Source of the DNA: a virus
Reading direction: 5' to 3' (one strand)
Virus record (IMG/VR): IMGVR_UViG_3300042905_004067
DNA: 64,000 bases
Made by a program: the position numbers and the translations under genes. The notes under the pieces are model-generated. The model saw nothing but the letters and a program-made list of their open reading frames with translations. It did not search any database and was not told where the DNA came from. Below, one piece after another: positions 3,778-21,456 of this stretch. Each line of letters starts with the position of its first letter. Within the stretch, counting starts at the first letter, position 1.

Positions 3778-3785
3778 TATTTATC
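3778..3785 (-). promoter_or_regulatory. Late promoter-like motif (GATAAATA)
   Basis: Upstream of the 3353..3757 start and SD. Confidence 0.55.
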
Positions 3786-4991
3786 TCATCTACTAACTCG
3801 TTCTTTTTTCTTTTTTGGGGTTACTTTTTTTTGTTCGTTTTTTTCTATTCGTTTTTCTACTTGTTTTTCAACAATCTGGGAACGCAATTGAATTATTATT
3901 TTTTCATATTCCGCCAAATTGGTTTTAACTCTTTCCAACTCTGCATCAGGAATAAGTTTTCTGTCGATAAGTGCTTTACACGCATTATAACCAACCTCAA
4001 CCTTACCCGCATAGTAGGCTGTGCTGCCAATTTCATCTAAAATACCATAACGATACACATCATTATCAATGAATAAAATGTCATCTTTTGGATATGGTAT
4101 CTCTGCTGCCATTTTTGCAAAAGTGTATCCAAGGGCAGGCTTTCCTTGAATTCTGTATACTCTTGCAATTTGATATAATGGTTCTGCTCTTGATGGTCTT
4201 GCGTTATATGCATCCAAGAATGCTTGTTGTATTTCAACCCAAGGTTTATTCTGCATAGCCCTGCATATTCCTATTCTATAAATTGAATAGTATATTTCTT
4301 CAGGCCAACCACCCATTTCAATTCTCTTGACATATGCTGCTTCTGCCTTTTCCCATTGTTGAGAATCGAAGTAACTTTGTGCCAAATAAAATTGATAACG
4401 AACGTTTTGTGGTTCATCAATCAATGCTTTTTCTAAAAGTTCAGCATCTTTTTTGTACTTTTCTACTGGTTCAATATCTTTATTTCTAGCACCTAAAGTT
4501 CGTGCAACAACTCTATAGTTTCCTTCAAGACGTTGAATATTTGGAATTCTCCCATCTTCAACAGTTGGATATTCGTGTAGAACTCCAACATATCTCCAGT
4601 TATCATTTGCTTTAAATATTTGAGTTCTCCACCAAGAGAAATCCATTCTACCCATTAAAACTGCATAACCATCAGCATCCTTAATTTGATCTCTTGGTAG
4701 TTTTCCCTCAACAAAGTCATCAGCGTCAATCATGAAAATATAATCTGTTTTTCCGTTGCAGAGTTCAAGTGCTTCGGTTCTGTTGTGTCCGAAAGAAACC
4801 CACGGGCGTTCATGTAGTTCGCCTGGTATTCCTTTTTCTGCAAAATAGGTTTTAATTAATTCTTGAGTTCCATCTGTTGAACCAGTGTCAACAATCACCC
4901 AATAATCAATTTGATCATAAATGGTATCAAAGCACTCTTTGATAATATGCGATTCATTCTTTACGATCATCGACAGACATAATTTATTCAT
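3786..4991 (-). CDS. GT2 glycosyltransferase with C-terminal TPR-like repeats (candidate protein glycosyltransferase)
   Basis: LSMIVKNE...VDTGSTDGT...F..NR...IDAD...GVLHE GT2 motifs; helical repeats RYQFYLAQSYFD and RAEPLYQIA. Confidence 0.85.
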   Translation of the reverse strand: MNKLCLSMIVKNESHIIKECFDTIYDQIDYWVIVDTGSTDGTQELIKTYFAEKGIPGELHERPWVSFGHNRTEALELCNGKTDYIFMIDADDFVEGKLPRDQIKDADGYAVLMGRMDFSWWRTQIFKANDNWRYVGVLHEYPTVEDGRIPNIQRLEGNYRVVARTLGARNKDIEPVEKYKKDAELLEKALIDEPQNVRYQFYLAQSYFDSQQWEKAEAAYVKRIEMGGWPEEIYYSIYRIGICRAMQNKPWVEIQQAFLDAYNARPSRAEPLYQIARVYRIQGKPALGYTFAKMAAEIPYPKDDILFIDNDVYRYGILDEIGSTAYYAGKVEVGYNACKALIDRKLIPDAELERVKTNLAEYEKIIIQLRSQIVEKQVEKRIEKNEQKKVTPKKKKERVSR

Positions 4992-5766
4992 GATAAGCCT
5001 TTAATAATTTTAAATAAGTTTCCTTGATACCATCGAATATTCCAACTGGTTTAATTGGCAGTTCTGAATCTCCGCAGTAAAAACTCAAATTGTTTTTATT
5101 TTCAATTAATACTGGAACTTCATAATCACCAAGATTATTTATAATGTTTACAATATGTTTTAAAGAATATTTTTCTGTGTAGGAACAGTTTATTTCTTTT
5201 TCTAAATTATCTTTTTTAATATAGTATTCTACTAAAGAAATTAAATCAGGCATATAGAAGAAATCCATAATTTTATTAGAATGAATTATCATTGGTTCTC
5301 GTCTAATATATCGAATTATATTCGATTTTATGAATCGAGTTTCCAATTCATTGTAATCAAATACTCCAAATATTCTTAAATTATAAAAATTAGGCAAATC
5401 TAAAATTTGTTTTGCTATTTCTCTTTTGCTGCTTGCATATGGTGTATCACCATGAAATATTTCAGCACCAGAACCAAAAGAAATTAATTTAGAGAAACAG
5501 TTTTTGTTTGCTAATAAATTAGTAAACATTGACATGTTATTGTTAAATACAATTTCATTATCATGTCTGAGTCTGCTACCACCACTTATGGCTGTATGAA
5601 TAACAGAATCAAACCTTTTTCCTTCAAACCAAGAACAAGTTTTAGAATAATCCGTTAAATCAAAGTCATTTCTAGTAATAGAAGTAACCCGATATTGAGT
5701 AGATAAAGAAGAATGTAAACTTTTGGCAATATAACCATTACCACCAGTTATTAACACAGATTTCAT
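4984..5766 (-). CDS. NAD-dependent epimerase/reductase (extended SDR)
   Basis: ITGGNGYIA Rossmann motif, YASSK catalytic motif. Confidence 0.85.
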   Translation of the reverse strand: MKSVLITGGNGYIAKSLHSSLSTQYRVTSITRNDFDLTDYSKTCSWFEGKRFDSVIHTAISGGSRLRHDNEIVFNNNMSMFTNLLANKNCFSKLISFGSGAEIFHGDTPYASSKREIAKQILDLPNFYNLRIFGVFDYNELETRFIKSNIIRYIRREPMIIHSNKIMDFFYMPDLISLVEYYIKKDNLEKEINCSYTEKYSLKHIVNIINNLGDYEVPVLIENKNNLSFYCGDSELPIKPVGIFDGIKETYLKLLKAYHE

Positions 5767-6866
5767 GACAAAATTAACTCATTGAAAGTATAAATTTTAA
5801 ATATACCTTTGTTTTTTAATTCTTGCTTTAATCGATCCGTTGCACTTTTTGTTAGCAACACAACAATATCAATTTCATGAAATGGTACATCTTCTTGTTT
5901 GTATAGTTTTTTACCATATACTTCATCAACATAACCACAGAGATAATCATCAATTAAATATTTGATATTATCTGGATTAAACTTTGCATGTTTTACTAAT
6001 GCATCATATATTTTAGATGCACCTATTATAGCCACTCTGTTCTTAGAAGATAGTTGCTCAATTTGCTTAGATACTGAATCTATTTTTTTATGGTTTTGTT
6101 TTAATATATTTGAGTATTTTTCAATTGTTTTTTTGTTTGTTATCGATCTATTTTTCTTTTGGCACAATATGACTATATTATGCATGTCGTCTTTGCAATC
6201 AATAACAATCAATCCAAGAGACAATATTTTTTTACACAAAACAGATATAGAAAAATGATAGGTGTGTTTATCTATAAAAAATTCTTGAACATTAGTTTCA
6301 TCATCCAGCACAGAAGCACTAGGAACATCAATGTATAGATATCCATCATCTTTTAATAAAGATGATGCTTGAATAAGCATTTCATTGGCGGAATTTGCAT
6401 GTTCTAGTGTATGACAACAGTAGATAAAATCAAATTTATCACTATTGTTATAATTTTCAAATCTCGTGTTATGTATTTTTACTTTGTCGCTTTGAATGTA
6501 TTCGTCTAATATTTTACCATCTGGTTCCACTGCAACAATACTACAAGTGGGATTAATCTTTGCCAAATAATTTACAAAATGACCACGATTTGATCCTATA
6601 TCAAGAACCGAATGTACTTCTGATAAATTAATAAAAGTTTGAATAAAATCTAACGATGATTGAAGTCGTATTTTTTTACCGTGTCTTATGTTTCCCCAAT
6701 CAGCATCAGAACTAATTGATTTATTTGTGTGTTTGTTTTCTTTATTAGAATATACAGTTTGTAGTAATCCGCAATCATTACACGAATAAACAACTGCTCC
6801 AATTCTAGAAGTTGGAACAACATAGACTTTACTGAGACACTTACATTTACAAAAATCACACTGCAT
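5763..6866 (-). CDS. Class I SAM methyltransferase with N-terminal CxxC..CxxC (NDP-sugar methyltransferase-like)
   Basis: CDFC...CNDCG, VLDIGSNRG, HTLEH, YIDVP, C-terminal IIGAS Rossmann-like domain. Confidence 0.75.
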   Translation of the reverse strand: MQCDFCKCKCLSKVYVVPTSRIGAVVYSCNDCGLLQTVYSNKENKHTNKSISSDADWGNIRHGKKIRLQSSLDFIQTFINLSEVHSVLDIGSNRGHFVNYLAKINPTCSIVAVEPDGKILDEYIQSDKVKIHNTRFENYNNSDKFDFIYCCHTLEHANSANEMLIQASSLLKDDGYLYIDVPSASVLDDETNVQEFFIDKHTYHFSISVLCKKILSLGLIVIDCKDDMHNIVILCQKKNRSITNKKTIEKYSNILKQNHKKIDSVSKQIEQLSSKNRVAIIGASKIYDALVKHAKFNPDNIKYLIDDYLCGYVDEVYGKKLYKQEDVPFHEIDIVVLLTKSATDRLKQELKNKGIFKIYTFNELILS

Positions 6867-7521
6867 AATTTTGATATTGTTTTTTGATTATAGTGTTGTC
6901 AACATTTGATTGCAAGAAATCGTTTAAAGAATGTACATCATTATTTATGATATCCTCGTAAGAAATAACAACATGTGGACATCGACGCATCTGCCAATCT
7001 ATGCAGTTATTAATGTGAGAATAATATTGATCAAATTCTATTCTTTTAACCATATGTGGTCCTTGCACAATATTATGTTCAAACAAATTACCATAATGAT
7101 TAATCATTGATAATTTTACTGAATTTTTATTCCGTATAACTTTTATAACATGCAAATTAGCAAAATTATACTGATTGAGTGTGAATGCCAATCTTGAGTC
7201 TTTAATAAACCAACCAGTATATGAATTCAATTCAGAATTAAGATTAATCATATCTAAATTGTTGCTATTGTGATTTTGTATCTCGTTTAATGTTGGTGGA
7301 TTTAAAAAACTATATTGATCATTTATTTCTTTTATTAGAGCATCATTAGTTTTAACTACATCAATTCTTTCAAAATAACCATCTGGATTAAACTTACTAT
7401 TTGGTTTCATCAGTTTTTTAGTACCATTCATGTCGGCGTCAAAGCCAGCACTCTTTACTAAATTGGCAACTAATGAAGTTCCACTTCGAGGGCAACCTAG
7501 AATTACTATATTTTTATTCAT
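6856..7521 (-). CDS. Sulfotransferase family protein
   Basis: ILGCPRSGTS PAPS-binding loop, NPDGYFE, KDSR, SYED. Confidence 0.8.
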   Translation of the reverse strand: MNKNIVILGCPRSGTSLVANLVKSAGFDADMNGTKKLMKPNSKFNPDGYFERIDVVKTNDALIKEINDQYSFLNPPTLNEIQNHNSNNLDMINLNSELNSYTGWFIKDSRLAFTLNQYNFANLHVIKVIRNKNSVKLSMINHYGNLFEHNIVQGPHMVKRIEFDQYYSHINNCIDWQMRRCPHVVISYEDIINNDVHSLNDFLQSNVDNTIIKKQYQNYAV

Positions 7522-9286
7522 AAGATATTGGTTTTACTAAAAGATTACTATTAAATTCATCACGATCTAAAAACGGAAAAAGATCTTCCATTGGTCTTGT
7601 AGAAAAACTACCATCGGATTTTTTGTAAACTGAGGCCTTTGGTAAAGTCTTATGGTTTTGATCTACAATTAATTCACAGATGACAGGTCCAGAACGCAAA
7701 AGAACATCAGACAACTGGGTTTTCAAATTTACTTGATTTGTAATCTTTACATAGGGTATCTTGTATGCCAGTGCATTCAATTCAATTGAAGGCAGACTTA
7801 ATCCACTTGATGGATCACTTACAACCAAATTACCACCAAAATGAGTATTTTGAGTTGTTTTTATAGATCCATATCCATTATTGTTTAACACAAACAGTTT
7901 GATTGGTAACTGATAGCGATATATCAATTCTAATTCTTGTATATTCATAAACAATCCACCATCACCATCGATACAGATAGTTTCTTTATTGCTGGCCAAT
8001 GCAGCAGCAATTGCTGCTGGTATTCCAAATCCCATAGAACCCAATCCTTCACTATTATAAACTCTTGTGTTCTTTTTGATTTGAAACGCCTGCATTGTAA
8101 CTTCACTACACGCACCGGAACTGCCTGGAACTAATAAAGATCCTTCTGGTAATAAATCAGACAGATGTTTTATAAAAGCATAATTATTGATATTCGGTTT
8201 GTTTGGCTCTAAGTATTCTTCTAGAATTACCGGATATTTTTCATACATCATCTTACAGGTGTTCAACCAATCAGAAGGAATCGTATTAGAAATTTTGCTA
8301 TTTGTTTCTCGGAGAAATACTTTGGCGTCGGCAACAATTGGATAATGAACATGAATTCCTAATTTATTGATTTCGTTCTCATCTATGTCAACAATACAAC
8401 GAACGGCCTCTCTGGCAAAATATTGAGGTTGATATGCTAACTGCCCATGATCTAATCTAGCACCAATTACTAATATAAAATCCGAATTCTGTTGATTAAA
8501 ATTTGCACCTCGTTGACCAACACCACCAGGTCTTCCAACATACTGAGGATGAGTTTCTTCAAGAAAATCCATTGCTTTCCATGTAGTTAATACTGGTATC
8601 TTTGTCTTATCAATGAACTCATAGAATTCTTGCATGGCACCAGATAATCTAACACCATTTCCAACTAAAACAATTGGTCGTTTTGCTGAATGCAACTCAT
8701 CAATCAAACATTGAATATTTTGTAAATTGTATGTTACGTTTTCTGGTTGAAATCCAACAAGAGAATCTTCGTCAATATCCGCAGCCTGAATATCAAGAGG
8801 AATATCTAATAGAACAGGACCTGGTCTGCCATTTTTCGCTAACCAAATTGCCTTTTCAAAATGATAACGAACTGTTTTTGGATCTGTTATCGTGACTGCA
8901 TATTTAACAATAGGTTTATAAATGGATACAGTATCAATCTCTTGAAATCCACATTGTCGTACTCCAAGATTACCAACTCTGTCTTTGTTCTGGACTTGCC
9001 CGGTTATCAAAAGAACAGGAATAGAATCTAACCAAGCAGAAGCAATTCCCGTCAATGCATTTGTTGATCCAGGTCCAGTAGTAACTAAAGCAACTCCAAT
9101 ATTGTTTGTATATTGGGAATAAGATTCGGCACATATCGAAGATGCTTGTTCGTGTAGATTTGGTATTAATTTAATGTTACTCCTGCTCAATGAATCTACT
9201 AAATGAATACAACCTCCACCAGAAACAAGAAAAACATGTTTAGTATACTCTTCTAATTGCTTAATTATGTAATCTGATAATTTCAT
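7514..9286 (-). CDS. TPP-dependent acetolactate-synthase-like enzyme (YerE-like sugar-branching carboligase)
   Basis: HEQ, TTGPGSTN, RPGPVLLDIP, GSMGFGIP, GDGG...NN TPP motif; sits in a sugar cluster with RfbH. Confidence 0.8.
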   Translation of the reverse strand: MKLSDYIIKQLEEYTKHVFLVSGGGCIHLVDSLSRSNIKLIPNLHEQASSICAESYSQYTNNIGVALVTTGPGSTNALTGIASAWLDSIPVLLITGQVQNKDRVGNLGVRQCGFQEIDTVSIYKPIVKYAVTITDPKTVRYHFEKAIWLAKNGRPGPVLLDIPLDIQAADIDEDSLVGFQPENVTYNLQNIQCLIDELHSAKRPIVLVGNGVRLSGAMQEFYEFIDKTKIPVLTTWKAMDFLEETHPQYVGRPGGVGQRGANFNQQNSDFILVIGARLDHGQLAYQPQYFAREAVRCIVDIDENEINKLGIHVHYPIVADAKVFLRETNSKISNTIPSDWLNTCKMMYEKYPVILEEYLEPNKPNINNYAFIKHLSDLLPEGSLLVPGSSGACSEVTMQAFQIKKNTRVYNSEGLGSMGFGIPAAIAAALASNKETICIDGDGGLFMNIQELELIYRYQLPIKLFVLNNNGYGSIKTTQNTHFGGNLVVSDPSSGLSLPSIELNALAYKIPYVKITNQVNLKTQLSDVLLRSGPVICELIVDQNHKTLPKASVYKKSDGSFSTRPMEDLFPFLDRDEFNSNLLVKPISYE

Positions 9287-10779
9287 AGCCAGTATGTTAC
9301 AAAAGTCTTGCGGTCTTTATTTTTTGCTATTGATTCATCGGTATAATACGAATCATTTAAATAATGCGTTGAAGATACCTCTTCGATTATACATCCAGTT
9401 TTAGTTGTAAATTGATGTCTAACTTCTTTTTCAATTGTCACAACATCACCCTTCTTTAGAATTTGAGTTGTGCCATCAAGAGAAAGTTCAACTTCTCCAT
9501 GCAATACAACAAAAGTTTCTTCCTTTTGTTTATGATATTGTTCTGGGTGTGTTTGATTTGGCAACACAATAATAAGTTTTTTGCAATACTCACGATTTAC
9601 TACTGTGATCATGGTAATTCCAGTTCTATGGAACTGATCAATACCATAATGATGTGATATTTCTAAATCTGCTTTGCCTGGATAAACTACTCCAGAATTG
9701 TTTAAAAATGTTTTAACTTCTTGAACAATTTTCCATATTTGTTCTCTTGTATTTTTCACTTGAACATTTTGTTTCAACATTGGTTTGTTTGCGGAAATTG
9801 ATTCGATAGCAATGTATTGATTATATTTGGATATATCATTTGCCAATACTTGATTTTCAATATTAGGCCAAGCATAATAAATGTCATTTTTTGTAATCAA
9901 AGTACCGGGTTCAACATCAATCTTTAAATAAACGCCACGCTTAAATTGAAGAAGGTCTTTTTGTTCTTTATCTGAAATTGGAGAACGCTGATTATGAACT
10001 CCGCACATATCAACGGCAGAAGAAGCAGCAAATAACCAACTGTCGAATTGTTCTGGTGTGACAGAATATGCGTTTGGAATGTATTTGTCTGTGCATACTG
10101 CTACATGTTTTTCTGCTAATTTTATTCCTTTACCTATGGCAATTTTAATAGCATCACACTGACTTGGTTCTTCGTGCGTAGAATAACCAATAGGAATGTT
10201 TGGGTATCTCTGTTGCAATACATCTATTTGGTTTAATTGAAGGTGATTAGACTCTGTTGGATATTCTCCAACACAATGCATCAATGAAATGTCTTTGTTT
10301 CTGTGTTCCATGAAACTAACAACACTGTCTAATTGTTCCAAAGAAGCCCCAGCTGTAGATATAATAATAGGTTTATTTACTGTTTGTAATTTATTAAGAA
10401 GAGGCCAATCATTAAAAGAACAACTAGCGACTTTAACAATGTCAAAGTTCATATTTAGTATCAAATCAACAGAATTTTCATCAAATGCCGTACACATAGA
10501 AATAAATCCATGTTCTTTGGCGCACTTTTGTAATTCAGTAAAATCTTCAATTCCCAACATGGTTTCTGTAAATCTCTTTACATATTTGTGTTCCATATTA
10601 CTTTTATACTCTTGATGAATATAAGTAGAGAAATCTCGGAACTGAAACTTCCATGCAAATCTAAACTTGTCGGAATATTTTTTACATACAGATCCAAACG
10701 ATTGAATCATCAATTTACCGTGATTCACATCACCCATATGGTTATTTGCCATTTCACATATTATTAATGGTTTGTTCAT
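9283..10779 (-). CDS. neuB: NeuB-family nonulosonic acid synthase with SAF domain and C-terminal cupin
   Basis: EMANNHMG, KFQ, KVAS, ISTAG, MHCVGEYP, GYSTHE, EKH; C-terminal HPEQYHKQKEETF...RHQF cupin; start moved to MNKPL (ATGA overlap). Confidence 0.8.
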   Translation of the reverse strand: MNKPLIICEMANNHMGDVNHGKLMIQSFGSVCKKYSDKFRFAWKFQFRDFSTYIHQEYKSNMEHKYVKRFTETMLGIEDFTELQKCAKEHGFISMCTAFDENSVDLILNMNFDIVKVASCSFNDWPLLNKLQTVNKPIIISTAGASLEQLDSVVSFMEHRNKDISLMHCVGEYPTESNHLQLNQIDVLQQRYPNIPIGYSTHEEPSQCDAIKIAIGKGIKLAEKHVAVCTDKYIPNAYSVTPEQFDSWLFAASSAVDMCGVHNQRSPISDKEQKDLLQFKRGVYLKIDVEPGTLITKNDIYYAWPNIENQVLANDISKYNQYIAIESISANKPMLKQNVQVKNTREQIWKIVQEVKTFLNNSGVVYPGKADLEISHHYGIDQFHRTGITMITVVNREYCKKLIIVLPNQTHPEQYHKQKEETFVVLHGEVELSLDGTTQILKKGDVVTIEKEVRHQFTTKTGCIIEEVSSTHYLNDSYYTDESIAKNKDRKTFVTYWL

Positions 10780-11075
10780 ATTATGTTCCAATCCTTTGTG
10801 TTCATATTTTTATCATCGATGAAGAGATCATAATTTGGTTTTCCAAATTTTAAATCATGATATTTAACTCCCCATTCTTTTAATTGTAGTTTAGTTACTT
10901 GGCTCCAGTCAATTCCAGTTGCAGTTCCTCTTGCAGTCCAATATACAATTAAATGTCCATCATCATATAGTTTATTTGCTTTGTTAATATTTTCAACAAT
11001 AGGATAGCAAACTGTATAGTCCGGTTTGTTTGGACTGTCACATATTGTATCATCTATATCAATATAAATCACCAT
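10776..11075 (-). CDS. Small HAD-superfamily phosphatase
   Basis: DIDDT, TARG, GKP..D..IDD. Confidence 0.85.
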   Translation of the reverse strand: MVIYIDIDDTICDSPNKPDYTVCYPIVENINKANKLYDDGHLIVYWTARGTATGIDWSQVTKLQLKEWGVKYHDLKFGKPNYDLFIDDKNMNTKDWNII

Positions 11076-12016
11076 ATAAATTTATTTTTGTAATATTCTA
11101 CAATTGAACTAAGTTCTTCATCAAATACTTTTTGTGGTTCCCATCCCAGTGCCCGCAACTTAGAATCATCTAATGCATATCTTACATCTTGTCCGGGTCT
11201 GTTGCAAGAAAAATCAATGTAATCTTCGTGTGGTTTATTTAAACCATAAACAGTGAGTAACTTCGTAACAGTTTCAAGATTGCTTTGTTCGTAACCACCG
11301 CATATATTGTAAATTTGATTTGTAACACCAGTTTCTATTAGTTTAATTGTAGCACTAGCAGTATCTTCTGCATGTAGCCAATTTCTAATAGGTGTCCCAT
11401 TATTGTGAAGAGGAATTTTTCTTCCTAATTTTAAATACTTACAAGCCTTTGGTATGAGTTTTTCAATATACTGACCAACTCCATAATTATTAGTCGGACG
11501 AACAATCACATATGGAATTTTATATGTTCTAGCCCAAGCAAGAATTAACATGTCAGCAGCAGCCTTTGTTGCTGAATATGGATTTGACGGTTTTAACACA
11601 TCTGTTTCTGTGTGCGAACCAGTTTCAATATCACCGTACACTTCATCAGTACTAAAATGTAGTAAGATTGGCATCGAACCACCTTCCTGTCTGTAGTTCT
11701 TCATTAATTCTAAAATATGGTGAACACCATTGATGTTAGAATGAACAAAATCGTCACTATTGGCAATCGAATTACCAACATGAGTTTCGGCTGCCGTATT
11801 GATTATATAATCACAATCATATAGAAATTTTAAATCATTTATGTCACAATGAACAAAGGAAAAATTGCTGTACTGTTTAAATTCCTCTAGTAATTGTTTA
11901 TTGGCAGCATATGTCATCTTGTCAACACCCTTAACATGCCATCCGCGTTTTAAGCAGTGACGAGTAACATAAGAACCAATGAAACCCAAACAACCAGTGA
12001 TGTATACGACTTTCAT
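11069..12016 (-). CDS. rmlB: dTDP-glucose 4,6-dehydratase
   Basis: TGCLGFIG, AAETHV, STDEVYG, PYSATKA, NNYG, EKLIP, RPGQDVRYA. Confidence 0.9.
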   Translation of the reverse strand: MKVVYITGCLGFIGSYVTRHCLKRGWHVKGVDKMTYAANKQLLEEFKQYSNFSFVHCDINDLKFLYDCDYIINTAAETHVGNSIANSDDFVHSNINGVHHILELMKNYRQEGGSMPILLHFSTDEVYGDIETGSHTETDVLKPSNPYSATKAAADMLILAWARTYKIPYVIVRPTNNYGVGQYIEKLIPKACKYLKLGRKIPLHNNGTPIRNWLHAEDTASATIKLIETGVTNQIYNICGGYEQSNLETVTKLLTVYGLNKPHEDYIDFSCNRPGQDVRYALDDSKLRALGWEPQKVFDEELSSIVEYYKNKFIW

Positions 12017-12019
12017 TAT

Positions 12020-13637: not shown

Positions 13638-13650
13638 TTCATATCACTCC

Positions 13651-14343
13651 TCAAAGATATTCACTAAAATAATCATTTAAAATTTTAACTCTATTGTTAT
13701 TAGACACACCAGTAAGATGTGCTAGAAAACATTTTTTATCCCAAGGAGCATAAATTGGTCTGCGACCAGTCCAACAGGTTGTATCCATGATTGGTGCAGG
13801 AACAGCATTTAAAAAATTATGTTCTAGTACTTTTATTACACTATTTGGTAAAGATCCACGATGAATGGCATTTAATGCATCTTGTTCTGTTGGAAATTGT
13901 TTTGCACAATTGTAAAACACATTTAAAAATGTATCTGTGTGTTGGGTGCGTTGTATAATAAAATTTCCAGTACTAAATGACCATTTACCAATCCAATCAT
14001 AAGATGCATAAAATGTATTATGTTCATCTAATTCAAATTTTTCTATAGAATAATTATCATCAGTTATGATGGAATCTGCATCTACCCACATAACAATATC
14101 ATAATATTCTAGCATTTCAAATGTACGAACTGCACGCAAAAAACCAATATCAGTATCTTTAAATCCGTACTTTTTATCAGTTCCAAAAGTTCGTAAAGTC
14201 ATCAAATCATAACCATGTTTTTTTGCGTACCTCTGTTTAGATGGCAGAGTTAATTCAAAAACTTCATTCATTGTCTTGTCAGTTTCTAATGGATTACGAA
14301 TAATTTCCGATGATCCTGTTAATATTAGAACTCTTTTATTCAT
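13651..14343 (-). CDS. GT34 (GMA12/MNN10)-like glycosyltransferase
   Basis: KQRYAKKHGY, WVDADS, EQDAL, FLAH; start moved to MNKRV. Confidence 0.7.
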   Translation of the reverse strand: MNKRVLILTGSSEIIRNPLETDKTMNEVFELTLPSKQRYAKKHGYDLMTLRTFGTDKKYGFKDTDIGFLRAVRTFEMLEYYDIVMWVDADSIITDDNYSIEKFELDEHNTFYASYDWIGKWSFSTGNFIIQRTQHTDTFLNVFYNCAKQFPTEQDALNAIHRGSLPNSVIKVLEHNFLNAVPAPIMDTTCWTGRRPIYAPWDKKCFLAHLTGVSNNNRVKILNDYFSEYL

Positions 14344-14344
14344 A

Positions 14345-15655
14345 TTATATTCCTGCAAAAAAATTTGTAGTGATTTGTTCGATATAGTCCAGTTGCTCAT
14401 TAGTAATTACTGGACTAGTTCCCAAAAAGAAAGTATCAGTAGTAACCTTTCTAGCATTTGGAAAATTGTTTATTACATCATCTTGATTCATTATACCAGT
14501 ATAAGCGGGCTGTAGCATCACATTTCCAGCAAAGTACGGTCTAGTTTGAATCTTATTATCTTCAAAATAGTTTACAATGTCCTTACGCTTGAATGGCGCA
14601 CCATCTTTGATTGTCAAGGCAAAAGCAAACCAACTTGGATTTGCATGTTCTGTTGCTTTTGGAAGAATAAAGAATTCTTCATACTTAGCAAAGATATCAC
14701 TTAGTCTTTTGTGATTATGATTTCTCTTTTGAGTGATTGTTGGTAATTTCTTTAGTTGAGCAAGTCCGATAGCAGCCTGTAATTCAATTGGCTTTAGATT
14801 GAAACCAATCTCATCATAAACATACTTGTGATCAAATACCTCATCAGGCAAAGAAGGAAGCCAATTAGAGAATCTTGTCTTACACATACCATTCTTTAAC
14901 ATATTGGCTTTCTTGCCAACACAATAGCAACCTCTTCCCCACTCTCGGAAACTTCGAACTACGATCTCTTGCTGTTGTGTATTACAAGCAACGAATCCAC
15001 CCTCACCCATAGTAATATGATGGGCTGGATAGAAAGAACAACTAGCGAAGTCACCGAAAGATCCTAGTGGTTTACCATTGTAAGTAGAATCTAATGCATC
15101 ACAGCAATCCTCAAGAAATATTAAACCATACTGATTGACAATATCCATGAGTCTGTTCATGTTTGGTGGATTACCCAACACATGTGCAAAAGTAATTACC
15201 TTGCAGCCTTCTTTTGCTTTTTGTTCTACTTGATCTAGGTTGAGATTGAGAGTGTCGATATCAATATCAACAAACTCAGGAACAAATCCAACTTGGAAAA
15301 TAGGATTGATTGTGGTGGGGAATCCAGCGATAGGAGTGATTACCTTTGTTCCCTTTTGAAAGTTTGTCAGTCTTTTGGATGTAAGAGCAGACATCATAAG
15401 CAGATTAGAACTGCTGCCACTATTAGTCAGGATACCAAAATCCTTCCCAACATACTTTGGAAACTGATGTTCAAAACGAATACCGTTCTCACCCAATACA
15501 AGCCATCCATTTAGTAAGGCTCGTATTGCTTCAACATATTCTTCTGTTCCAAAGTATGGACCTGCATATTGAACAACATCTTGTCCTGCAATCCACTTCT
15601 TTGATTCGTTCTTTTTGGTTATGAACTCTTCTACTGCTTTTAAAATTTCTTCCAT
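14345..15655 (-). CDS. rfbH: NDP-4-keto-6-deoxyglucose 3-dehydratase (RfbH/DdhC, E1)
   Basis: NSGSSSNL, EDCCDAL, SFYPAHHITMGEGG (His in place of the aminotransferase Lys), WGRGCYC, DHKY; start moved to MEEIL. Confidence 0.9.
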   Translation of the reverse strand: MEEILKAVEEFITKKNESKKWIAGQDVVQYAGPYFGTEEYVEAIRALLNGWLVLGENGIRFEHQFPKYVGKDFGILTNSGSSSNLLMMSALTSKRLTNFQKGTKVITPIAGFPTTINPIFQVGFVPEFVDIDIDTLNLNLDQVEQKAKEGCKVITFAHVLGNPPNMNRLMDIVNQYGLIFLEDCCDALDSTYNGKPLGSFGDFASCSFYPAHHITMGEGGFVACNTQQQEIVVRSFREWGRGCYCVGKKANMLKNGMCKTRFSNWLPSLPDEVFDHKYVYDEIGFNLKPIELQAAIGLAQLKKLPTITQKRNHNHKRLSDIFAKYEEFFILPKATEHANPSWFAFALTIKDGAPFKRKDIVNYFEDNKIQTRPYFAGNVMLQPAYTGIMNQDDVINNFPNARKVTTDTFFLGTSPVITNEQLDYIEQITTNFFAGI

Positions 15656-15657
15656 AA

Positions 15658-16494
15658 TTAATGAATACCCATTCCCCAATCATTCAAGTTTGGAATGTTA
15701 TATCTTTTAACATTTTCTTTTATAGATTTATACTTAAAACTTTCTTCAATGTTATGATTTTCATAAACATTATATGGAACTTTCAATAAAAAATCAAACA
15801 ATTTAATGTCCCAATTAAAATTATTTACAGAAGAATCGTATTCTTTTGCCTGTGTGGTTTTAACACCAAACTTAAGTTGAGCAACATAATCAGTGACTTT
15901 CCAATAATACTGTTTAACTGCAACTGTTTTTTTATCCAGCCATTGTATGTGTGCAACAAATAACATTGGATGATTTATCTTAATCGCTCTGCCAGGATGT
16001 GGAAGATGCTCAGAATGTCGTTGTGCATCTTTAAATGTGGCTCTAGAAGAGTAAGAACCAATTCTATCTGCTATATGATCTCTCCATTTTCCATCTACTC
16101 GTATTTTATTGTAATCTGTATATTGTATCCAATCCATATAAATTAAAGTATCTTTATATGTTTCTAAAATTTGTTCTAATTGCTCTTTAGTCAAATTACC
16201 ATCTAGATATTCATCTGTATCCAAACAAATAATTTTACCAGAATATTTAAATGCTTCATCATATAGCAATTGCCTATTATTAGATTCAATGGCACATTTA
16301 TTTTCTATATGTGTATCTGTTCGTAATATATTCAAAATATTGTATTTATCTTTGTTTTCTAACAAATATTCATATGTGCCATCAGTTGAACTGTCATCCA
16401 TGAAAATAAAAGCATCGGCATATTTTTTCCAATGAGGAAGCATTTCCTTTAAGATAAACAATTCATTTTTCGTAAGTGTAATTTGTATTATCAT
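15658..16494 (-). CDS. GT2-like glycosyltransferase
   Basis: TKNE, DDSSTDGT, LDTDE. Confidence 0.75.
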   Translation of the reverse strand: MIIQITLTKNELFILKEMLPHWKKYADAFIFMDDSSTDGTYEYLLENKDKYNILNILRTDTHIENKCAIESNNRQLLYDEAFKYSGKIICLDTDEYLDGNLTKEQLEQILETYKDTLIYMDWIQYTDYNKIRVDGKWRDHIADRIGSYSSRATFKDAQRHSEHLPHPGRAIKINHPMLFVAHIQWLDKKTVAVKQYYWKVTDYVAQLKFGVKTTQAKEYDSSVNNFNWDIKLFDFLLKVPYNVYENHNIEESFKYKSIKENVKRYNIPNLNDWGMGIH

Positions 16495-17195
16495 TTTTGT
16501 GTTATTATTGGAAATCCAGAAGACTTTCGATTCATATACATCTGTTTATCATAATTAGAACCAATTTGCATATTTCTTGCCATTAGACTATCTTGATTTT
16601 CAAACCATTTATGAATAATTGGTCTTCGTTTTATGTGTTTCAGAACTCCTAATGATTCAAAAACTTCTGTCTGTTCATTGTCACACCATTCAGATTTGTA
16701 ATCAGGATGATACACATATCCAAATAAATTGTACAGTGTTCTTCCAATAATAGGAAGAGTAATTAAAGTTTTATATCCTTCTGGACCTTTATGATCAAGC
16801 CGAGGATCTGTATCATAGTTTAAACTACCCTTTAAATCGGGAAAGAAAGAAAACATATCATTAACTATGATATCGTCCCAATTATTTTCAACTGGTTCCA
16901 TATCATCTGCCGTAGAAATTAAAATATCCCAAGAACTATCGGGAATATCTCTATTTATTGCATGTATTTTTCCTCTACTTTCCCCATAAAAGAAACTAAT
17001 AGTTACATTATCTGTATTTTTAGATTCTAGGAATTGACGAATATGTTCATTGTTCAATAGAACATCATCTGTGTCCATGCTAATGATTACTGTTATTTTA
17101 TGTTTACCAGAAGCCTTATTTAAATAAGAATTCAAATTTGACATAAATTTTTCAGGTCGTTGTCTTGTCGGATATTTTAATAAAATGTGTTTCAT
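16491..17195 (-). CDS. GT-A fold glycosyltransferase
   Basis: PTRQRP, GKIHAIN, ADDM, YKSEWCDNE, H.W; start moved to MKHIL. Confidence 0.7.
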   Translation of the reverse strand: MKHILLKYPTRQRPEKFMSNLNSYLNKASGKHKITVIISMDTDDVLLNNEHIRQFLESKNTDNVTISFFYGESRGKIHAINRDIPDSSWDILISTADDMEPVENNWDDIIVNDMFSFFPDLKGSLNYDTDPRLDHKGPEGYKTLITLPIIGRTLYNLFGYVYHPDYKSEWCDNEQTEVFESLGVLKHIKRRPIIHKWFENQDSLMARNMQIGSNYDKQMYMNRKSSGFPIITQK

Positions 17196-17205
17196 AGTAA
17201 AAATC

Positions 17206-17331
17206 TCATAGTACAAAAATCATATTTTCCCATCTATTTTCTATTAATCTATAACCTAATTTTGTAAATTTCTCAAATAATGCAGTATGCATATTATCAT
17301 TCTCTACGCAAATTATATATTTTTTTGTCAT
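17206..17331 (-). pseudogene. 41-aa ORF resembling the C-terminus of an FkbM-type methyltransferase (remnant)
   Basis: MTKKYIICVENDNMHTALFEKFTKLGYRLIENRWENMIFVL; the ICVE...LGY...N.IF pattern matches FkbM C-termini. Confidence 0.5.
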
Positions 17332-17334
17332 ATA

Positions 17335-18048
17335 TTATCTCATTTCGTGGGTATCGACCAGATTACGATCAGGTAAATAACCATCTAATTCATAAACATC
17401 TTTCTCATTGTTTACAATTATTTGTTGACCAACAAAATAAACACCGCCATTATTAACTCCACGGTGTGTTCCGGGTGGAAATGGTTTTTTAGAAAAAAAT
17501 GGATCGTGTTCAATATAACTGAATTTATTATTTTTTATTTTGTGAGTTAAATATGCAGACATAAAATTCTGATCTTGTGTTTTTTCTAAAGACGGATTAT
17601 AGCGTTTAATGGCATTAAACATTTCACCTTTAAATTTATCACACTTAAGTCCAAACATTCCTGCTTGTATAAACCAAGCATGATATGGATGATCTCGCAT
17701 TATATGAATATCTGCATCTGATTTAATCCATTCATCTACTGCTAGTTTTTCTCTAAAAGACACTCTAGAGTCGGCATCTCTAAAAATTGCGCGTTCAACA
17801 TCCACAAAATCAACAGCCAAAAATCTATTCATTGCCGATCTATTATCACCAATAGATTCTATCTGTATTACATTTGTATTTTTTCTAGTTTTAAGTTCTT
17901 TGATTATTTCTTCGGGAACACAGGAATTGCAGAAATAATAACAAACCCATCCCGGATAAACATCTAATGCTAAATCTGCATTATTTATTGCTCCTCTCGT
18001 ATAGAGAGGATTATTGCCCCATAAACTAAAAGAAATCACATTTTTCAT
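17335..18048 (-). CDS. Glycosyltransferase-like protein (ISFSLWG...RDADSR...MRDHP family)
   Basis: DxD motif, AGMFG, DQ.F; family recurrent in glycan loci. Confidence 0.6.
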   Translation of the reverse strand: MKNVISFSLWGNNPLYTRGAINNADLALDVYPGWVCYYFCNSCVPEEIIKELKTRKNTNVIQIESIGDNRSAMNRFLAVDFVDVERAIFRDADSRVSFREKLAVDEWIKSDADIHIMRDHPYHAWFIQAGMFGLKCDKFKGEMFNAIKRYNPSLEKTQDQNFMSAYLTHKIKNNKFSYIEHDPFFSKKPFPPGTHRGVNNGGVYFVGQQIIVNNEKDVYELDGYLPDRNLVDTHEMR

Positions 18049-18051
18049 TTT

Positions 18052-18654
18052 TTATTTTTTCATAAATTGTATCGATTCAGATGTTCTATCATCATATCGA
18101 TACAAATGTAGTATCTTATTTATGTGTGTTTCTGATTTTACTTTGGGATACATCAAAAGACACCAAGCAAAATCTTCACCATATGAAGATGCTTCAAGTT
18201 TTGCTTGTTTTGCTATTTCTGATTTCCAGAAACACATATGAAATGGTGGGCGTTTTACATGAGTCATTCCCGGAATATATCTCTCATTCGGATTGTTCAT
18301 GTTAAAATTAACTATAAATTGATTTCCATTTACTATGCAGTGCTGATCAAAACTTATAACATCGGCTGGTTTTTCTTTTATAGTATTAATAATAGTTGAC
18401 ATATAATCATCAGTAATATCATCGTCATCATCCATGAAAGCAATCCATTTACCTCTAGCAGAGTCTAAGAGTGCTTGCCGTTTTTCGCCAATAGTCATAC
18501 TTTTATTATCAATCAGGCAAAGAATTTCAACCTCTGGATAGTTTTTTGTTTGCTCTAACATTTTATTGTATAGGGGTATTAGATATTTTTCAATTCTAGA
18601 TGGTATTGAAAGTATAAGTATACTGACTAAAACGCTGTCTTTATCAGTTGGCAT
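18052..18654 (-). CDS. GT2 glycosyltransferase
   Basis: SILILS, IGEKRQ, ARGKWIAFMDDDD, GED. Confidence 0.85.
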   Translation of the reverse strand: MPTDKDSVLVSILILSIPSRIEKYLIPLYNKMLEQTKNYPEVEILCLIDNKSMTIGEKRQALLDSARGKWIAFMDDDDDITDDYMSTIINTIKEKPADVISFDQHCIVNGNQFIVNFNMNNPNERYIPGMTHVKRPPFHMCFWKSEIAKQAKLEASSYGEDFAWCLLMYPKVKSETHINKILHLYRYDDRTSESIQFMKK

Positions 18655-19501
18655 ATTTTATTTCTCCTGCTGCTTTAATAATTCTGTCTACAAAATTCAC
18701 ACAATATTGTTTTGCTTTTTCAAAGTTATAATTAATCTTATCAATATTTTCTTTGTAATATTTTTCTGTATATTCTGTTGTGAGAATTCGTTGAGGATTA
18801 ATCCAATAACTCGTATCAAAAAAATCTGAAATATTTGGACATCCCCAATAAATTGGGATTGTTTTAGTTATTAAACAATCAATTAATTTTTCAGAAAAGT
18901 AATTTAGTTCGTTTGAACTTTCAATTACAACAGAATACATTGAATTAAACAGATGAATTTTGTCATCATTTGGTAATAGTGATTCGCCTGGTATGGGAAA
19001 CCGTGTAGATGAATAAAAATTTAATTTGGCTGGTATGTGTTTTCGGTTATTCCAAATTGTGTGTCTTATTCCGTATCCCAATTTTCCAGATAAAGCCCCA
19101 CATATCATACTAATAGAATTTTCTTTTTGTATTTTTCCAAGATCTTCTGTAAATGTCCCATGTGAATCTGGATGGTGTTTGGATTTGTTAAGCCATGTTG
19201 TACCATATGGAACTAACACTGCATTTTTGCAATTATCTAATATCTTTGGATGTGTTGTTGCAATTTTTGTATAGTGATGTTGATTTGCAATTACATGATC
19301 TGCCTGTTCCACCCAAGCAGAAGTAGTTGGTTCATTACAATTTACAAAAATTTTATGTTTTGAGTCTGAAAAAAAATGAACATCCCCACCGGGTCTTTGA
19401 TTTTTACCAAATCTAGTAAAATGTATTTCGCATGACTCTTTTAGATCAGGTATCTGATCTTCAGAAAACATATAGTCTGCATTAAGAATAATTGGTTTCA
19501 T
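18644..19501 (-). CDS. GT10 (alpha-1,3-fucosyltransferase-like) glycosyltransferase
   Basis: YSVVIES...NYFSEKLIDC...TIPIYWG. Confidence 0.8.
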   Translation of the reverse strand: MKPIILNADYMFSEDQIPDLKESCEIHFTRFGKNQRPGGDVHFFSDSKHKIFVNCNEPTTSAWVEQADHVIANQHHYTKIATTHPKILDNCKNAVLVPYGTTWLNKSKHHPDSHGTFTEDLGKIQKENSISMICGALSGKLGYGIRHTIWNNRKHIPAKLNFYSSTRFPIPGESLLPNDDKIHLFNSMYSVVIESSNELNYFSEKLIDCLITKTIPIYWGCPNISDFFDTSYWINPQRILTTEYTEKYYKENIDKINYNFEKAKQYCVNFVDRIIKAAGEIKYAN

Positions 19502-20342
19502 TTATTTTATTCCAAAGATAATCATCACTTGATTGTAATTTTTTTATTTTGTCAAAGTTTTCTTCAACGGCATCTAGTTTAGAATAATAAAGTTCTGGTG
19601 TCAATGATTTAATATCAAAAGTTTCATTTAATAAAATTATTCCATTAATGTTAAACAACTCACCAATAGCAGGATTCCCAAGATAAACTGGAATAGTTCC
19701 TGTGGCAAAACAGTCTGTCAGTTTTTCCGTATAATAACCATCATAGAAATCATTCTCCACTACTATATGAAACATATAATCCTTCAACCCAAACATTTTG
19801 CTTTTCCATGGCTGAGTTGGATCTGTTTCAGGAAGTTTAGGAGAACCACAGGCACCACCAAACAAATCTAAATTATCTTTAAATCTATTTGCATATCCAT
19901 GACGAATCATGTGTCCTTTTGTGTATTGTTTATGAGATGCAACCATACTAACTAACTTTATTTTGTCGTATATTGCATATTCCGACTCAGGAATCCACGG
20001 CAAATTACTTCCTGCCGGACAATATTTAAATACTTTAGAAAAAGATACTAAATTTTTATCTGATACAAAAATTGTTTTGAATCGTTTTTCTAGTTTATCA
20101 TAGTTCCAAGATAAAAACTGAGAAAGATTATTTACTACGGATCTGGACTCGCACACCCATCCATATATTTCAGTTATTCCGGGTGGAAGTTGCTCATACT
20201 GCATAATTGTATTATCAATTAATACAAGTTTATCTATATTAGAATACTTAGGTAAAGACCATTCAAAGTTTTTAGGTTTTCTATTTGAACACGATGAACT
20301 ATTCACATCAAAAGGAAATCCATAACCAAAAAGTTTATTCAT
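19482..20342 (-). CDS. GT10 (alpha-1,3-fucosyltransferase-like) glycosyltransferase
   Basis: YMFHIVVEN...GYYTEKLTDCF..GTIPVYLG. Confidence 0.85.
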   Translation of the reverse strand: MNKLFGYGFPFDVNSSSCSNRKPKNFEWSLPKYSNIDKLVLIDNTIMQYEQLPPGITEIYGWVCESRSVVNNLSQFLSWNYDKLEKRFKTIFVSDKNLVSFSKVFKYCPAGSNLPWIPESEYAIYDKIKLVSMVASHKQYTKGHMIRHGYANRFKDNLDLFGGACGSPKLPETDPTQPWKSKMFGLKDYMFHIVVENDFYDGYYTEKLTDCFATGTIPVYLGNPAIGELFNINGIILLNETFDIKSLTPELYYSKLDAVEENFDKIKKLQSSDDYLWNKINETNYS

Positions 20343-21004
20343 GTTTTAACTTCCATAAATGAATTGCCTGGTGATTGCCATTCAACCAATTCGTCGTTAT
20401 AACCCATTTTTTTAAGTGCTTCCTTCTTAGAAGGTGCGTCGGAAAGACCCATCATCAATACTGTAGAAGCAGTTGCTTTGCCAGGCCAAGCACAATATTC
20501 TTCTCCTAATATTGCAACTTTTTTCTTTTGTTCAATTAAATACTTATGAGCACAACCAATAAACGTTTCGTGGTCAAACAAATTTCCTTTTGTTCTTTTA
20601 ACAAATTCACACTGATTTATCCATGTTTTAACAAACTCCAAACTTTCATTATTAAAATTAAACCACAGTGGAGATGCTTTAATCTTTACTAAATTATTTG
20701 GTTCGGTCGAAGCAGCACCAAGACTTACTCCAAGATTGGCAAACCCATCAAATGCATTTGGTTGTTTTAATATAAATGTATCAATATCCAACCAAAGGAT
20801 TGGTCTTTTATGTTCCGTGAGTTTTGAGTATATAAATTTTGGTTTTACTAAACAATTATCTTGATAACTGCCTAAAGATTGTATTTGAGTAATTTCAGCA
20901 GGAATTTGTAATCGTTCGCACTCCTCACGAAAACGTGCGGCATGATCGCTATAATAGGTGCTACCATCTACATCACAAAAATAACTTATCACAAGTGTTT
21001 GCAT
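20339..21004 (-). CDS. Nucleotide-diphospho-sugar transferase-like protein
   Basis: KPKFI...ILWLDID, W...C, DHE pattern. Confidence 0.6.
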   Translation of the reverse strand: MQTLVISYFCDVDGSTYYSDHAARFREECERLQIPAEITQIQSLGSYQDNCLVKPKFIYSKLTEHKRPILWLDIDTFILKQPNAFDGFANLGVSLGAASTEPNNLVKIKASPLWFNFNNESLEFVKTWINQCEFVKRTKGNLFDHETFIGCAHKYLIEQKKKVAILGEEYCAWPGKATASTVLMMGLSDAPSKKEALKKMGYNDELVEWQSPGNSFMEVKT

Positions 21005-21407: not shown

Positions 21408-21456
21408 ACTAAACCATTTCTATTAATATTATATGCCATATCATTGATGGCACAGA

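Follow-up and report, generated by a model that had tools for sequence, protein, structure and literature searches.

Ever since the first genomes of cyanophages, gene clusters for glycan synthesis have been known from marine T4-like phages; they are routinely labelled as host lipopolysaccharide (LPS) modification, which was never tested. Here, such a cluster is described in a 64,000-nucleotide (nt) stretch (the window) of the virus record IMGVR_UViG_3300042905_004067 from IMG/VR, where an island of glycan genes (21004-3786, minus strand) directly follows the gene regA. It resembles the 'LPS' clusters of cyanomyophages and the host recognition cluster of pelagimyophages (P-SSM2, S-SCSM1, S-SCSM2R, RB11-B/S-B05), which consist of 10-25 co-directional genes for glycosyltransferases (GTs), nucleoside diphosphate (NDP)-sugar dehydratases or epimerases and methyltransferases (PMC7029224, PMC12801897). 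The pelagimyophage clusters are, like the island, mixed with tail-fibre genes and hypervariable between genomes; modification of the host surface was assigned to these aquatic clusters without testing (PMC7029224, PMC12801897). In Synechococcus phage RB11-B an E1-like dehydrase, 42 % identical to the E1 enzyme of the island, lies inside a ~17-kb island. However, the pelagimyophage cluster is located between VrlC and gp14, whereas the island described here stands after regA, where relatives have gp43. Unlike the clusters of cultured aquatic phages, it contains a YerE-like enzyme and a NeuB-cupin fusion, for which phages in GenBank show just remote (~30 %) or partial matches, and unlike those of cultured cyanophages and pelagiphages it ends in a SunS/GmaR-like enzyme, called GT2-TPR in the following. 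Glycan islands in aquatic T4-like phages are already known, and the island as such is not new. New are its position after regA, the demonstration across a clade of a locus with conserved flanks and a variable centre, the YerE-like branching pathway and NeuB-cupin module in a phage, and a SunS/GmaR-like anchor tied to fibre genes. With moderate confidence we favour the reading that its genes form a self-contained pathway of cytoplasmic glycosylation with virion proteins of the phage itself as acceptors, most probably the side fibres encoded immediately downstream.

Several other known systems are related to parts of the island. The glycocin S-glycosyltransferases SunS and ThuS and the flagellin O-GlcNAc transferase GmaR of Listeria are soluble and consist, like GT2-TPR, of an N-terminal GT-A (GT2) domain with a DxD motif and a helical TPR domain (PDB 7MSN, 7MSK, 22AO; PMC9638930). 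The identity is 16-18 %, and the phage protein has in addition a long C-terminal helix and a basic tail. With the bacterial pathways for yersiniose, erwiniose and caryophyllose (YerE/YerF, ErwE/F/I/J, MMAR_2332; PMC9306805, PMC12247030) the island shares a 4,6-dehydratase, an E1 enzyme, a YerE-like enzyme, a short-chain dehydrogenase/reductase (SDR) and, as an optional component, an S-adenosylmethionine (SAM)-dependent methyltransferase. In contrast to these pathways it is phage-encoded, its dehydratase is RmlB-like and not of the CDP-glucose type, a cytidylyltransferase and an E3 reductase are missing, the donor enzyme is a NeuB-like phosphoenolpyruvate (PEP) synthase with cupin and HAD and not a pyruvate aldolase, and a sulfotransferase is present as an extra. 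A precedent for virion glycosylation comes from mycobacteriophages (Freeman 2023, cited in PMC12801897, PMC12619734). As summarised in PMC12619734, soluble viral GTs and methyltransferases build O-glycans on capsid and tail-tube proteins and host export is not needed; the mycobacteriophages use 2-6 genes and host nucleotide sugars, whereas a dedicated pathway is predicted from the genes of the island. Phage seroconversion modules (GtrABC, Oac, Wzy-type) are likewise phage genes that alter a glycan, but they encode integral membrane proteins and belong to temperate phages. Chlorovirus and mimivirus encode machineries for the glycosylation of capsid or fibrils. To our knowledge, glycosylation of the virion has not been demonstrated for any T4-like phage.

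All genes of the window lie on the minus strand. The island is filled by 19 open reading frames (ORFs), of which ten are GT-like and nine belong to sugar-precursor or tailoring functions. Upstream it is bounded by the gene of the translational repressor RegA (21407-21006; PF01818, E 3e-40), the first ATG of the island at 21004 being 1 nt past the regA stop codon. Downstream follow, in this order, a 134-amino acid (aa) ORF, the gene of a tail fibre with collagen repeats (776 aa) and that of a structural protein of 215 aa. At four of the island junctions neighbouring genes share the 4 nt ATGA and at nine others they share 7-56 nt; the sole real gap comprises 118 bp (17217-17334). A tightly coupled run of glycan genes directly after regA, which the original prediction had drawn from the letters of the DNA, is therefore borne out by coordinates, gene content and overlaps; the 'many ATGA overlaps' named there hold as tight coupling but overstate this type of junction. 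Likewise, the nature of the gene content stands while the counts of about 18 genes and nine GTs had to be raised, and the nucleotide-sugar and tailoring enzymes could be identified by family searches in all nine cases. The proposed insertion after regA is right in its starting point. However, since fibre genes and not gp43 come after the island, the junction downstream of regA is, by its gene order, rearranged, and a simple insertion between regA and gp43 is ruled out.

GT2-TPR (3786-4991), the conserved downstream anchor with an architecture like that of SunS, ThuS and GmaR, is the single island gene that is kept throughout the clade. A profile built from 22 homologues and searched against the PDB gave GmaR (E 6.5e-18), SunS (7e-14) and ThuS (4e-12), the next GT being TarS with 1e-5. 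With the AlphaFold2 (AF2) model, which has a predicted local distance difference test score (pLDDT) of 89.5, Foldseek matched SunS/ThuS (E~1e-16) over ~390 columns including both domains, followed by TarS (1.4e-7) and by RmlT and TarP (~1e-7). The GT-A domain with the DxD motif precedes the TPR domain, and DxD and DTGSTD are invariant among the homologues. All of the nearest solved relatives are soluble and glycosylate proteins or peptides directly, and a protein or peptide acceptor is proposed for GT2-TPR as well. At the C-terminus (3786-3830) a 40-residue helix is followed by a conserved, very basic tail, KKVTPKKKKERVSR, which reads FKxRKxVSR in relatives; it could be a membrane-, nucleic-acid- or capsid-targeting element.

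Related loci were collected from IMG/VR contigs, the closest RegA proteins being 66-91 % identical, and 28 related stretches with 326 ORFs were examined. In these loci GT2-TPR always adjoins the gene of a 134-aa collar-like protein and fibre genes. In the window the former (3353-3757, minus strand) encodes an Ig-like virion protein, a probable fibre-docking or collar protein with matches to phrog_1084/phrog_3304, and PHROGs ties it to L-shaped tail-fibre assembly. A sequence-profile search against the PDB was uninformative and the fold search alone resolved the protein: the AF2 model (pLDDT 84) matched ~140-aa tail-tip/baseplate chains of DT57C and T5 (Foldseek E 4e-6, TM 0.65), and the T5 chains are presumably those of the fibre-anchoring collar protein. 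Next to it lies the collagen-repeat tail fibre (904-3234, minus strand; PF01391, E 6e-31; tail-fibre PHROGs), whose C-terminal half is Ser/Thr/Gly-rich and is a candidate glycan acceptor. Collagen-like or giant fibres are found downstream in all relatives examined. Altogether 47 viral homologues of GT2-TPR with their loci are known to us, and in about 30 of them it precedes the 134-aa gene, behind which lie fibre genes of the collagen-like or giant type. In locus L011, GT2-TPR is the only gene that separates regA from the 134-aa gene. A lone GT2-TPR (42 % identical) is present in the distant T4-like contig L113, between a collar-like gene and a tail fibre, in the structural module of the VrlC-gp14 region just upstream of gp13, gp14, gp15 and the terminase, and no other glycan gene was found among the neighbouring ORFs examined. 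That these neighbours are kept in two different genome architectures is the strongest argument at hand for a role of GT2-TPR in the fibre module.

In L119:9962-14158 (1,399 aa) and L122:9896-14323 (1,476 aa), GT2-TPR is fused with GT25 and GT10 domains in a single protein and is therefore tied to elongating transferases. These multi-domain fusions recall A064R of chlorovirus. Among the phage records of GenBank no homologue of GT2-TPR was found in cultured T4-like phages, including cyanophages and pelagiphages. The only homologue with substantial coverage in a cultured phage is that of Tunturiibacter phage Tunturi_5 (36 % identity over 87 %), and a weak partial match exists also in an Enterococcus phage record. 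In Tunturi_5 a nucleotidyltransferase adjoins the gene and a tail fibre lies 4 kb away on the other strand, which is compatible with a virion acceptor but not informative.

A comparison of gene order at regA, which had been asked for beforehand, places the island in a clade-wide locus. Where RegA is most similar to that of the window, regA is directly followed by homologues of the first island genes. The survey covered 55 regA loci with at least 1.5 kb of downstream sequence. A homologue of an island gene is present within 3.5 kb of regA in 12 loci (directly after it in nine), gp43 within the same distance in 11, all of them more distant, as in HTVC008M and Mosig, and something else in the other 32. 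The frame of the clade is gp44-gp62-regA, then 1.3 to ~17 kb of glycan genes, then GT2-TPR, the collar-like protein and fibres. In the relatives, 214 proteins have no homologue in the window and fall into 119 clusters; by Pfam these extra proteins include FkbM methyltransferases, GTs of the families GT2, GT11, GT25 and GT47, hexapeptide acyltransferases, an HMGL aldolase and acetaldehyde dehydrogenase. T4-like core genes are thus found to flank a hypervariable run of GT and NDP-sugar genes that is associated with fibre genes, and with its conserved flanks and recombining centre the locus is built like an O-antigen locus of bacteria. Single islands of relatives also hold genes that one would not expect among glycan genes, namely for a RuBisCO-large-chain-like protein (E 1e-35), for an amidotransferase resembling NAD synthase (E 2e-51) and for a protein like HtrL/YibB. 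Tentatively, we propose that the clade keeps an O-antigen-like 'virion serotype' locus, in which a SunS/GmaR-type GT would anchor a strain-variable side-fibre glycan with a previously undescribed, sulfated and methylated higher-carbon branched sugar, for which the YerE-like ThDP enzyme would receive a NeuB-derived ulosonic acid as acyl donor.

Membrane proteins are missing from this locus, as the original prediction had noted for the export machinery. None of the 19 island ORFs has a 19-residue window with the hydropathy of a membrane span, apart from one marginal stretch inside a methyltransferase. The 326 ORFs of the 28 related stretches show three isolated hydrophobic windows and no multipass membrane protein. 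In these stretches no priming phosphoglycosyltransferase, flippase, polymerase, ligase or membrane enzyme of Gtr/Oac type was detected, and neither the island nor the stretches contain a membrane glycosyl- or acetyltransferase or a polymerase of the kind used in seroconversion.

Directly before regA, at the place named beforehand (21457), the late-promoter-like motif AATAAATA is located (21457-21464, minus strand), 50 nt upstream of the gene and overlapping the gp62 stop codon. This 8-mer alone is not over-represented in the window (12 found, 13.8 expected). The 7-mer ATAAATA has 21 copies on the coding (minus) strand and one on the other strand. Although just 1,208 bases (1.9 % of the window) are intergenic, eight of the 21 copies lie in them, each of the eight 6-50 nt upstream of a gene start, and the genes behind them include capsid-region and tail genes, regA, the 134-aa gene and the 215-aa gene; the copy at 3778-3784 (minus strand) precedes the 134-aa gene by 21 nt. 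Of 20 relatives, 12 have NTAAATA at a distance of 32-83 nt (mostly 45-65 nt) before regA. Furthermore, the ORF 31183-31743 encodes a homologue of gp55, with 51-57 % identity to the late sigma factors of HTVC008M and Mosig, so that both parts of a T4-type late unit, a TATAAATA-like -10 element upstream and gp55, are present in the window. The ATAAATA before regA is a credible T4-type late promoter. Scans for sigma-70 promoters and terminators across the island remained at chance level, and no internal promoter or terminator is claimed. An inverted repeat, TGCCATCAATGATATGGCA (21440-21456, minus strand), lies just downstream of the AATAAATA motif and upstream of regA; L003, L005 and L013 have the arms GTGCC...GGCA as well, around a different loop, and the repeat may act as a regulatory hairpin or as an operator for RegA.

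The most serious alternative to virion glycosylation, possible but in our judgement rather unlikely, is remodelling of the host envelope. From the cytoplasmic side of the inner membrane, the soluble GTs would modify the host lipid A-core or a host-primed lipid-linked glycan, and MsbA, Wzx or ABC transporters of the host would export the altered lipooligosaccharide (LOS), LPS or capsule, which would block superinfection or the adsorption of progeny to infected cells and debris. The glycan clusters in cyanomyophages and pelagimyophages are usually interpreted in this way (PMC7029224; PMC12801897), and for comparable islands the published view favours modification of the host O-chain (PMC7029224). 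Yersiniose, erwiniose and caryophyllose are sugars of bacterial LPS and LOS (PMC12247030), and branched 3,6-dideoxyhexoses are known from these molecules only (PMC12247030; PMC9306805). GT25, which occurs in islands of relatives, and GT9, to which a weak match occurs in other contexts, are typical LOS-core enzymes. The absence of flippase, Wzy and ligase, which the original prediction counted against a host-surface target, is real; however, remodelling of the LOS or LPS core needs nothing but peripheral GTs without membrane spans, and host MsbA flips any core that is made. The basic tail of GT2-TPR could mediate association with the membrane. Moreover, cultured Synechococcus phages (e.g. RB11-B) carry comparable ~17-kb islands, including the E1 homologue, away from fibre genes. 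On the other hand, the anchor enzyme resembles protein GTs far more than those for polysaccharides or teichoic acids, it is embedded in the fibre module even where no other glycan gene is present (L113), none of the membrane enzymes listed above occurs in the 28 stretches, and a late-promoter-like motif is an odd fit for superinfection exclusion.

Apart from the LPS/LOS origin of the sugars, the GT25 and GT9 matches, the published view and the possible membrane association of the tail, some further results weigh against virion glycosylation. With 51.6 bits, GT2-TPR is far below the cut-off of 350 of the SunS equivalog TIGR04195 and is not a SunS orthologue; its substrate class is therefore inferred from the architecture only. 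No terminator was found between gp45-gp44-gp62 and the island, and therefore early or middle read-through is possible, which leaves of the claimed late expression a real late-promoter-like motif before regA. Neither a nucleotidyltransferase nor a flavin/ferredoxin (E3) reductase was found among the 19 island ORFs with Pfam, NCBIfam and the atlas; the pathway therefore relies on the host or on genes outside the window. The assignment of the acceptor to fibres or collar is favoured by gene linkage and by the likeness of GT2-TPR to protein GTs, the glycosylation itself being predicted from the genes. The modification of phage proteins in the cytoplasm, as originally predicted, retains the lack of membrane proteins in 28 stretches, the protein-GT likeness of the anchor, the fibre linkage and the late-like motif on its side, although its lateness is partial and LOS/LPS remodelling is compatible with the same gene set.

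Improbable is a third reading, in which a GmaR/SunS-like enzyme modifies a host protein (flagellin, pilin, S-layer or a secreted peptide) or the pathway makes a free glycosylated metabolite. Its nearest solved relatives do act on flagellin (GmaR) and on secreted glycocin peptides (SunS/ThuS), and all island enzymes are soluble. However, the conserved linkage is with fibre and collar genes of the phage and not with a host-mimicking substrate gene, the island has neither a precursor-peptide gene nor an exporter, and ten GTs with a dedicated rare-sugar pathway would be excessive for a glycocin-type product. Very improbable is DNA hypermodification, in which GTs would decorate hydroxymethylated bases with a complex glycan against restriction as in T-even phages and in the viral DNA-glycan systems of Pyle et al. 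2024 (cited in PMC12619734): the phage is T4-like and multi-sugar DNA glycans made by phage GTs are known (reference 46 of PMC12619734), but no base hydroxymethylase or DNA-binding type of GT was seen among the island ORFs, the GT2-TPR architecture and fibre linkage point to protein, and a sulfated, methylated, branched higher-carbon sugar with ten transferases is without DNA precedent.

The nine sugar-precursor and tailoring genes (all on the minus strand) allow a pathway to be predicted. The E1-type enzyme (14345-15679) is an Fe-S and pyridoxamine 5'-phosphate (PMP)-dependent NDP-4-keto-6-deoxyhexose 3-dehydrase like RfbH/DdhC, with 469.1 bits over residues 8-441 against the PRK15407 cut-off of 423 (NCBIfam) and an E of 5.5e-107 to PDB 3BCX. 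Its active-site His is kept (FYPAHHITMGEGG), identical to the wild type, whereas the H220K mutant 3BB8 has AK there. Cys residues are kept in EDCCDAL, GCYC and MCK, with a 5-residue insertion before the last of these, and we take the four Cys to be the ligands of the [2Fe-2S] cluster. The NDP-hexose 4,6-dehydratase (11069-12016) is RmlB-like, with 310 bits on TIGR01181, below the cut-off of 365, and just 77 bits on the model of CDP-glucose dehydratase. Two SDR proteins are present. One is a 282-aa epimerase/reductase (12020-12868; PF01370, E 2e-30); the other is an RmlD-like reductase (4984-5766; PF01370, E 1e-12), a candidate for a YerF-type side-chain reductase, which adjoins GT2-TPR in relatives too. 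The remaining tailoring enzymes are a SAM methyltransferase of 367 aa (5763-6866; PF13489, E 1e-15) and a sulfotransferase (6856-7521; PF13469/PF00685, weak) whose position is matched in another contig.

The YerE-like protein (7514-9286) is predicted to be a thiamine diphosphate (ThDP)-dependent carboligase for sugar C-branching. It has TPP_N, TPP_M and TPP_C domains (each ~1e-31) and is closer to JanthE (8RPH, E 8e-109) and to 5AHK (E 1e-85), which we take to be PpYerE, than to the best plant acetohydroxyacid synthase (AHAS; ~1e-64). It scores below all AHAS equivalog cut-offs. JanthE and PpYerE are named as the YerE-like enzymes whose structures are solved (PMC12247030). In the known acyl-branched sugars an aldolase makes a functionalised alpha-keto acid, which the YerE-like ThDP enzyme joins to CDP-3,6-dideoxy-4-ketoglucose; a YerF-type reductase then reduces the branch and a methyltransferase sometimes tailors it (PMC9306805; PMC12247030). 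The island holds dehydratase, E1, NeuB-cupin/HAD and SDR in one operon, the gene context expected of YerE-like enzymes, and the carboligation of an alpha-keto acid onto a keto-sugar is predicted for its YerE-like protein. The core pathway of RmlB-like dehydratase, E1, YerE-like enzyme and reductases predicts a C4-branched 3,6-dideoxyhexose.

Directly upstream lies a NeuB-like PEP-condensing synthase fused to a cupin sugar isomerase (9283-10791; PF03102, E 1e-39, and Cupin_2), with an E of 1e-93 to PDB 3G8R versus 1e-18 to true NeuB. The fusion is a large and well-conserved family. It is preceded by a minimal HAD phosphatase of 99 aa with a DIDDT motif (10776-11075; phrog_1238, E 4e-25, with a weak match to the BT0820 HAD family). 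In three of three other, unrelated contexts a thiamine pyrophosphate (TPP) enzyme gene directly follows the NeuB-cupin gene. One unrelated contig even repeats the order of the window with dehydratase, a 97-aa gene, NeuB-cupin, TPP enzyme, sulfotransferase, methyltransferase and SDR; the 97-aa gene holds the HAD slot directly upstream of NeuB-cupin, and its homology is suggested by position and length. In all contexts examined that have NeuB (four contigs and the window), the NeuB-family gene is directly upstream of the YerE-like gene. By position and chemistry, NeuB-cupin and HAD probably supply the keto-acid donor for the YerE-like enzyme. The module is read as a source of this donor and not of a separate sialic-acid-like sugar because a CMP-sugar synthetase is absent and products of NeuB are alpha-keto acids. 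A CMP-activated sialic-acid-like donor was judged less likely on the same absence and on the constant place of NeuB directly upstream of the YerE-like gene.

What stands next to the YerE-like gene, in this window HAD and NeuB-cupin, is swapped among relatives. This slot contains an acetaldehyde dehydrogenase and a DmpG/BphI-type aldolase in L086, which is the erwiniose arrangement (ErwJ/ErwI-type, BphJ/BphI pair; PMC9306805), an HMGL-like aldolase in L088, a plain NeuB-like synthase in L097, a split transketolase-like pair in L094, and DJ-1/PfpI with two unknown proteins in L107. In the closest relative the 5.3 kb of the window at 11071-5766 (HAD, NeuB-cupin, YerE-like, sulfotransferase, methyltransferase) are cleanly exchanged for a 3.4-kb cassette (L107:5860-9221) with DJ-1/PfpI, the two unknown proteins and a YerE-like gene that is 39 % identical. 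The nucleotide identity to this contig varies by segment from 74 % to 92 %, including the flanks of the swapped cassette. In L094 (7148-8246) the transketolase-like pair, beside a 4,6-dehydratase, replaces the YerE-like enzyme itself, a second type of sugar-branching chemistry at the locus. Metagenome contigs of up to 126 kb from ENA/JGI (L130-L134) carry a related E1/dehydratase/NeuB-cupin/TPP cassette beside radical-SAM, FKBP and NUDIX genes, and the cassette therefore circulates beyond the regA clade. We know of no description of NeuB-family products as ThDP donors. The series of cassettes suggests that such products can serve as ThDP donors, which would be a plausible new route to branched sugars.

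Of the ten GT calls, seven came from Pfam/PHROGs, one GT10 paralogue from BLASTP and two GT-A-like proteins from atlas features and structure. The conserved first island gene (20339-21004) encodes a GT-A protein (Nucleotid_trans/GT34-like) with the DxD motif LDIDT; it has no Pfam match and was recognised by atlas features (0.98) and by structure (TM 0.70-0.78 to Nucleotid_trans/GT34 viral clusters). A homologue stands directly after regA in eight relatives. It is followed on the same strand by a GT10-like gene (19482-20342; PF00852, E 5e-8), its paralogue (18644-19501; BLASTP E 2e-11 to the neighbouring gene) and a 200-aa GT2 (18052-18654; PF00535, E 8e-8). The next protein, unk237 (17335-18048), has an RDxDSR motif and belongs to atlas viral clusters named 'putative glycosyltransferase' (0.99). 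This putative call, which relies on an automatic cluster name alone, is the weakest of the ten; the nearest named families, GT8/Nucleotid_trans, score 0.92 in the atlas and are a lead only, and a profile search against the PDB gave chance matches only. Behind the gap come a GT of phrog_14945 (16491-17216; PHROGs), a GT2_4 (15658-16494; PF13704, E 1e-6), a GT34/DUF273-like GT (13651-14400; Pfam) and a weak GT2-like/GT7C-like GT (12861-13637; Pfam, PHROGs). The relative L005 has a 222-aa gene (15194-15859) whose 3' end can be aligned with the non-coding gap itself (17217-17334, minus strand); the gap looks like the deletion scar of this gene rather than a regulatory region.

Upstream of the island the gene order is, from 5' to 3', RNase H (24558-23749), gp45 clamp (23566-22877), gp44 (22847-21873), gp62 (21876-21463) and RegA, all on the minus strand. 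The RegA protein is 58 % identical to RegA of Pelagibacter phages. The gp44 protein is at most 59 % identical to that of any deposited phage, the top matches being the Pelagibacter phages Mosig and HTVC008M, with cyanomyophages next. When the first 24 kb of the window were compared with GenBank phages by Megablast, no match was obtained; the phage is therefore without a close sequenced relative. To judge from its genes, the source is an uncultured aquatic T4-like (Kyanoviridae-like) phage. The GC content of the island (0.30-0.34) is the same as in the rest of the phage, which rules out a recent acquisition from a high-GC host. A 108-aa ORF (24631-24957) between the RNase H gene and its upstream neighbour contains a stretch of 39-46 residues that matches fibre proteins of several relatives (39-49 % identity).

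If the island serves virion glycosylation, the following course may be envisaged. The RmlB-like 4,6-dehydratase and the E1 3-dehydrase would convert host-supplied NDP-glucose to an NDP-3,6-dideoxy-4-ketohexose. In parallel, the cupin isomerase, the NeuB-like synthase and the minimal HAD phosphatase would make a 3-deoxy-2-ulosonic (alpha-keto) acid, which the YerE-like ThDP enzyme would decarboxylate, adding the product to C4 of the keto-sugar. SDR reductases, methyltransferase and sulfotransferase would complete the higher-carbon branched sugar. GT2-TPR would put the first sugar on a Ser/Thr (or Cys) of a virion protein bound by its TPR domain, and the remaining nine GTs would lengthen the chain. 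By recombination among phages, exchange of cassettes would lead to a strain-specific type of virion glycan, which may modulate adsorption or shield the fibres from proteases, grazers or decoy binding.

With its GT2-TPR gene firmly coupled, in divergent lineages, to the genes of a fibre-docking protein and of fibres, the locus offers a concrete and testable alternative to the host LPS label. The cassettes beside the YerE-like gene (BphI/BphJ-type pair, HMGL aldolase, NeuB, NeuB-cupin with HAD, split transketolase) are a natural library for the enzymology of branched sugars. If virion glycosylation holds true, this would be the first autonomous system of its kind in T4-like phages, and the long-unexplained 'LPS genes' of marine phages would have to be reinterpreted. 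Fibres that bear strain-specific glycans would also bear on the modelling of host range, adsorption and phage decay in lakes and oceans.

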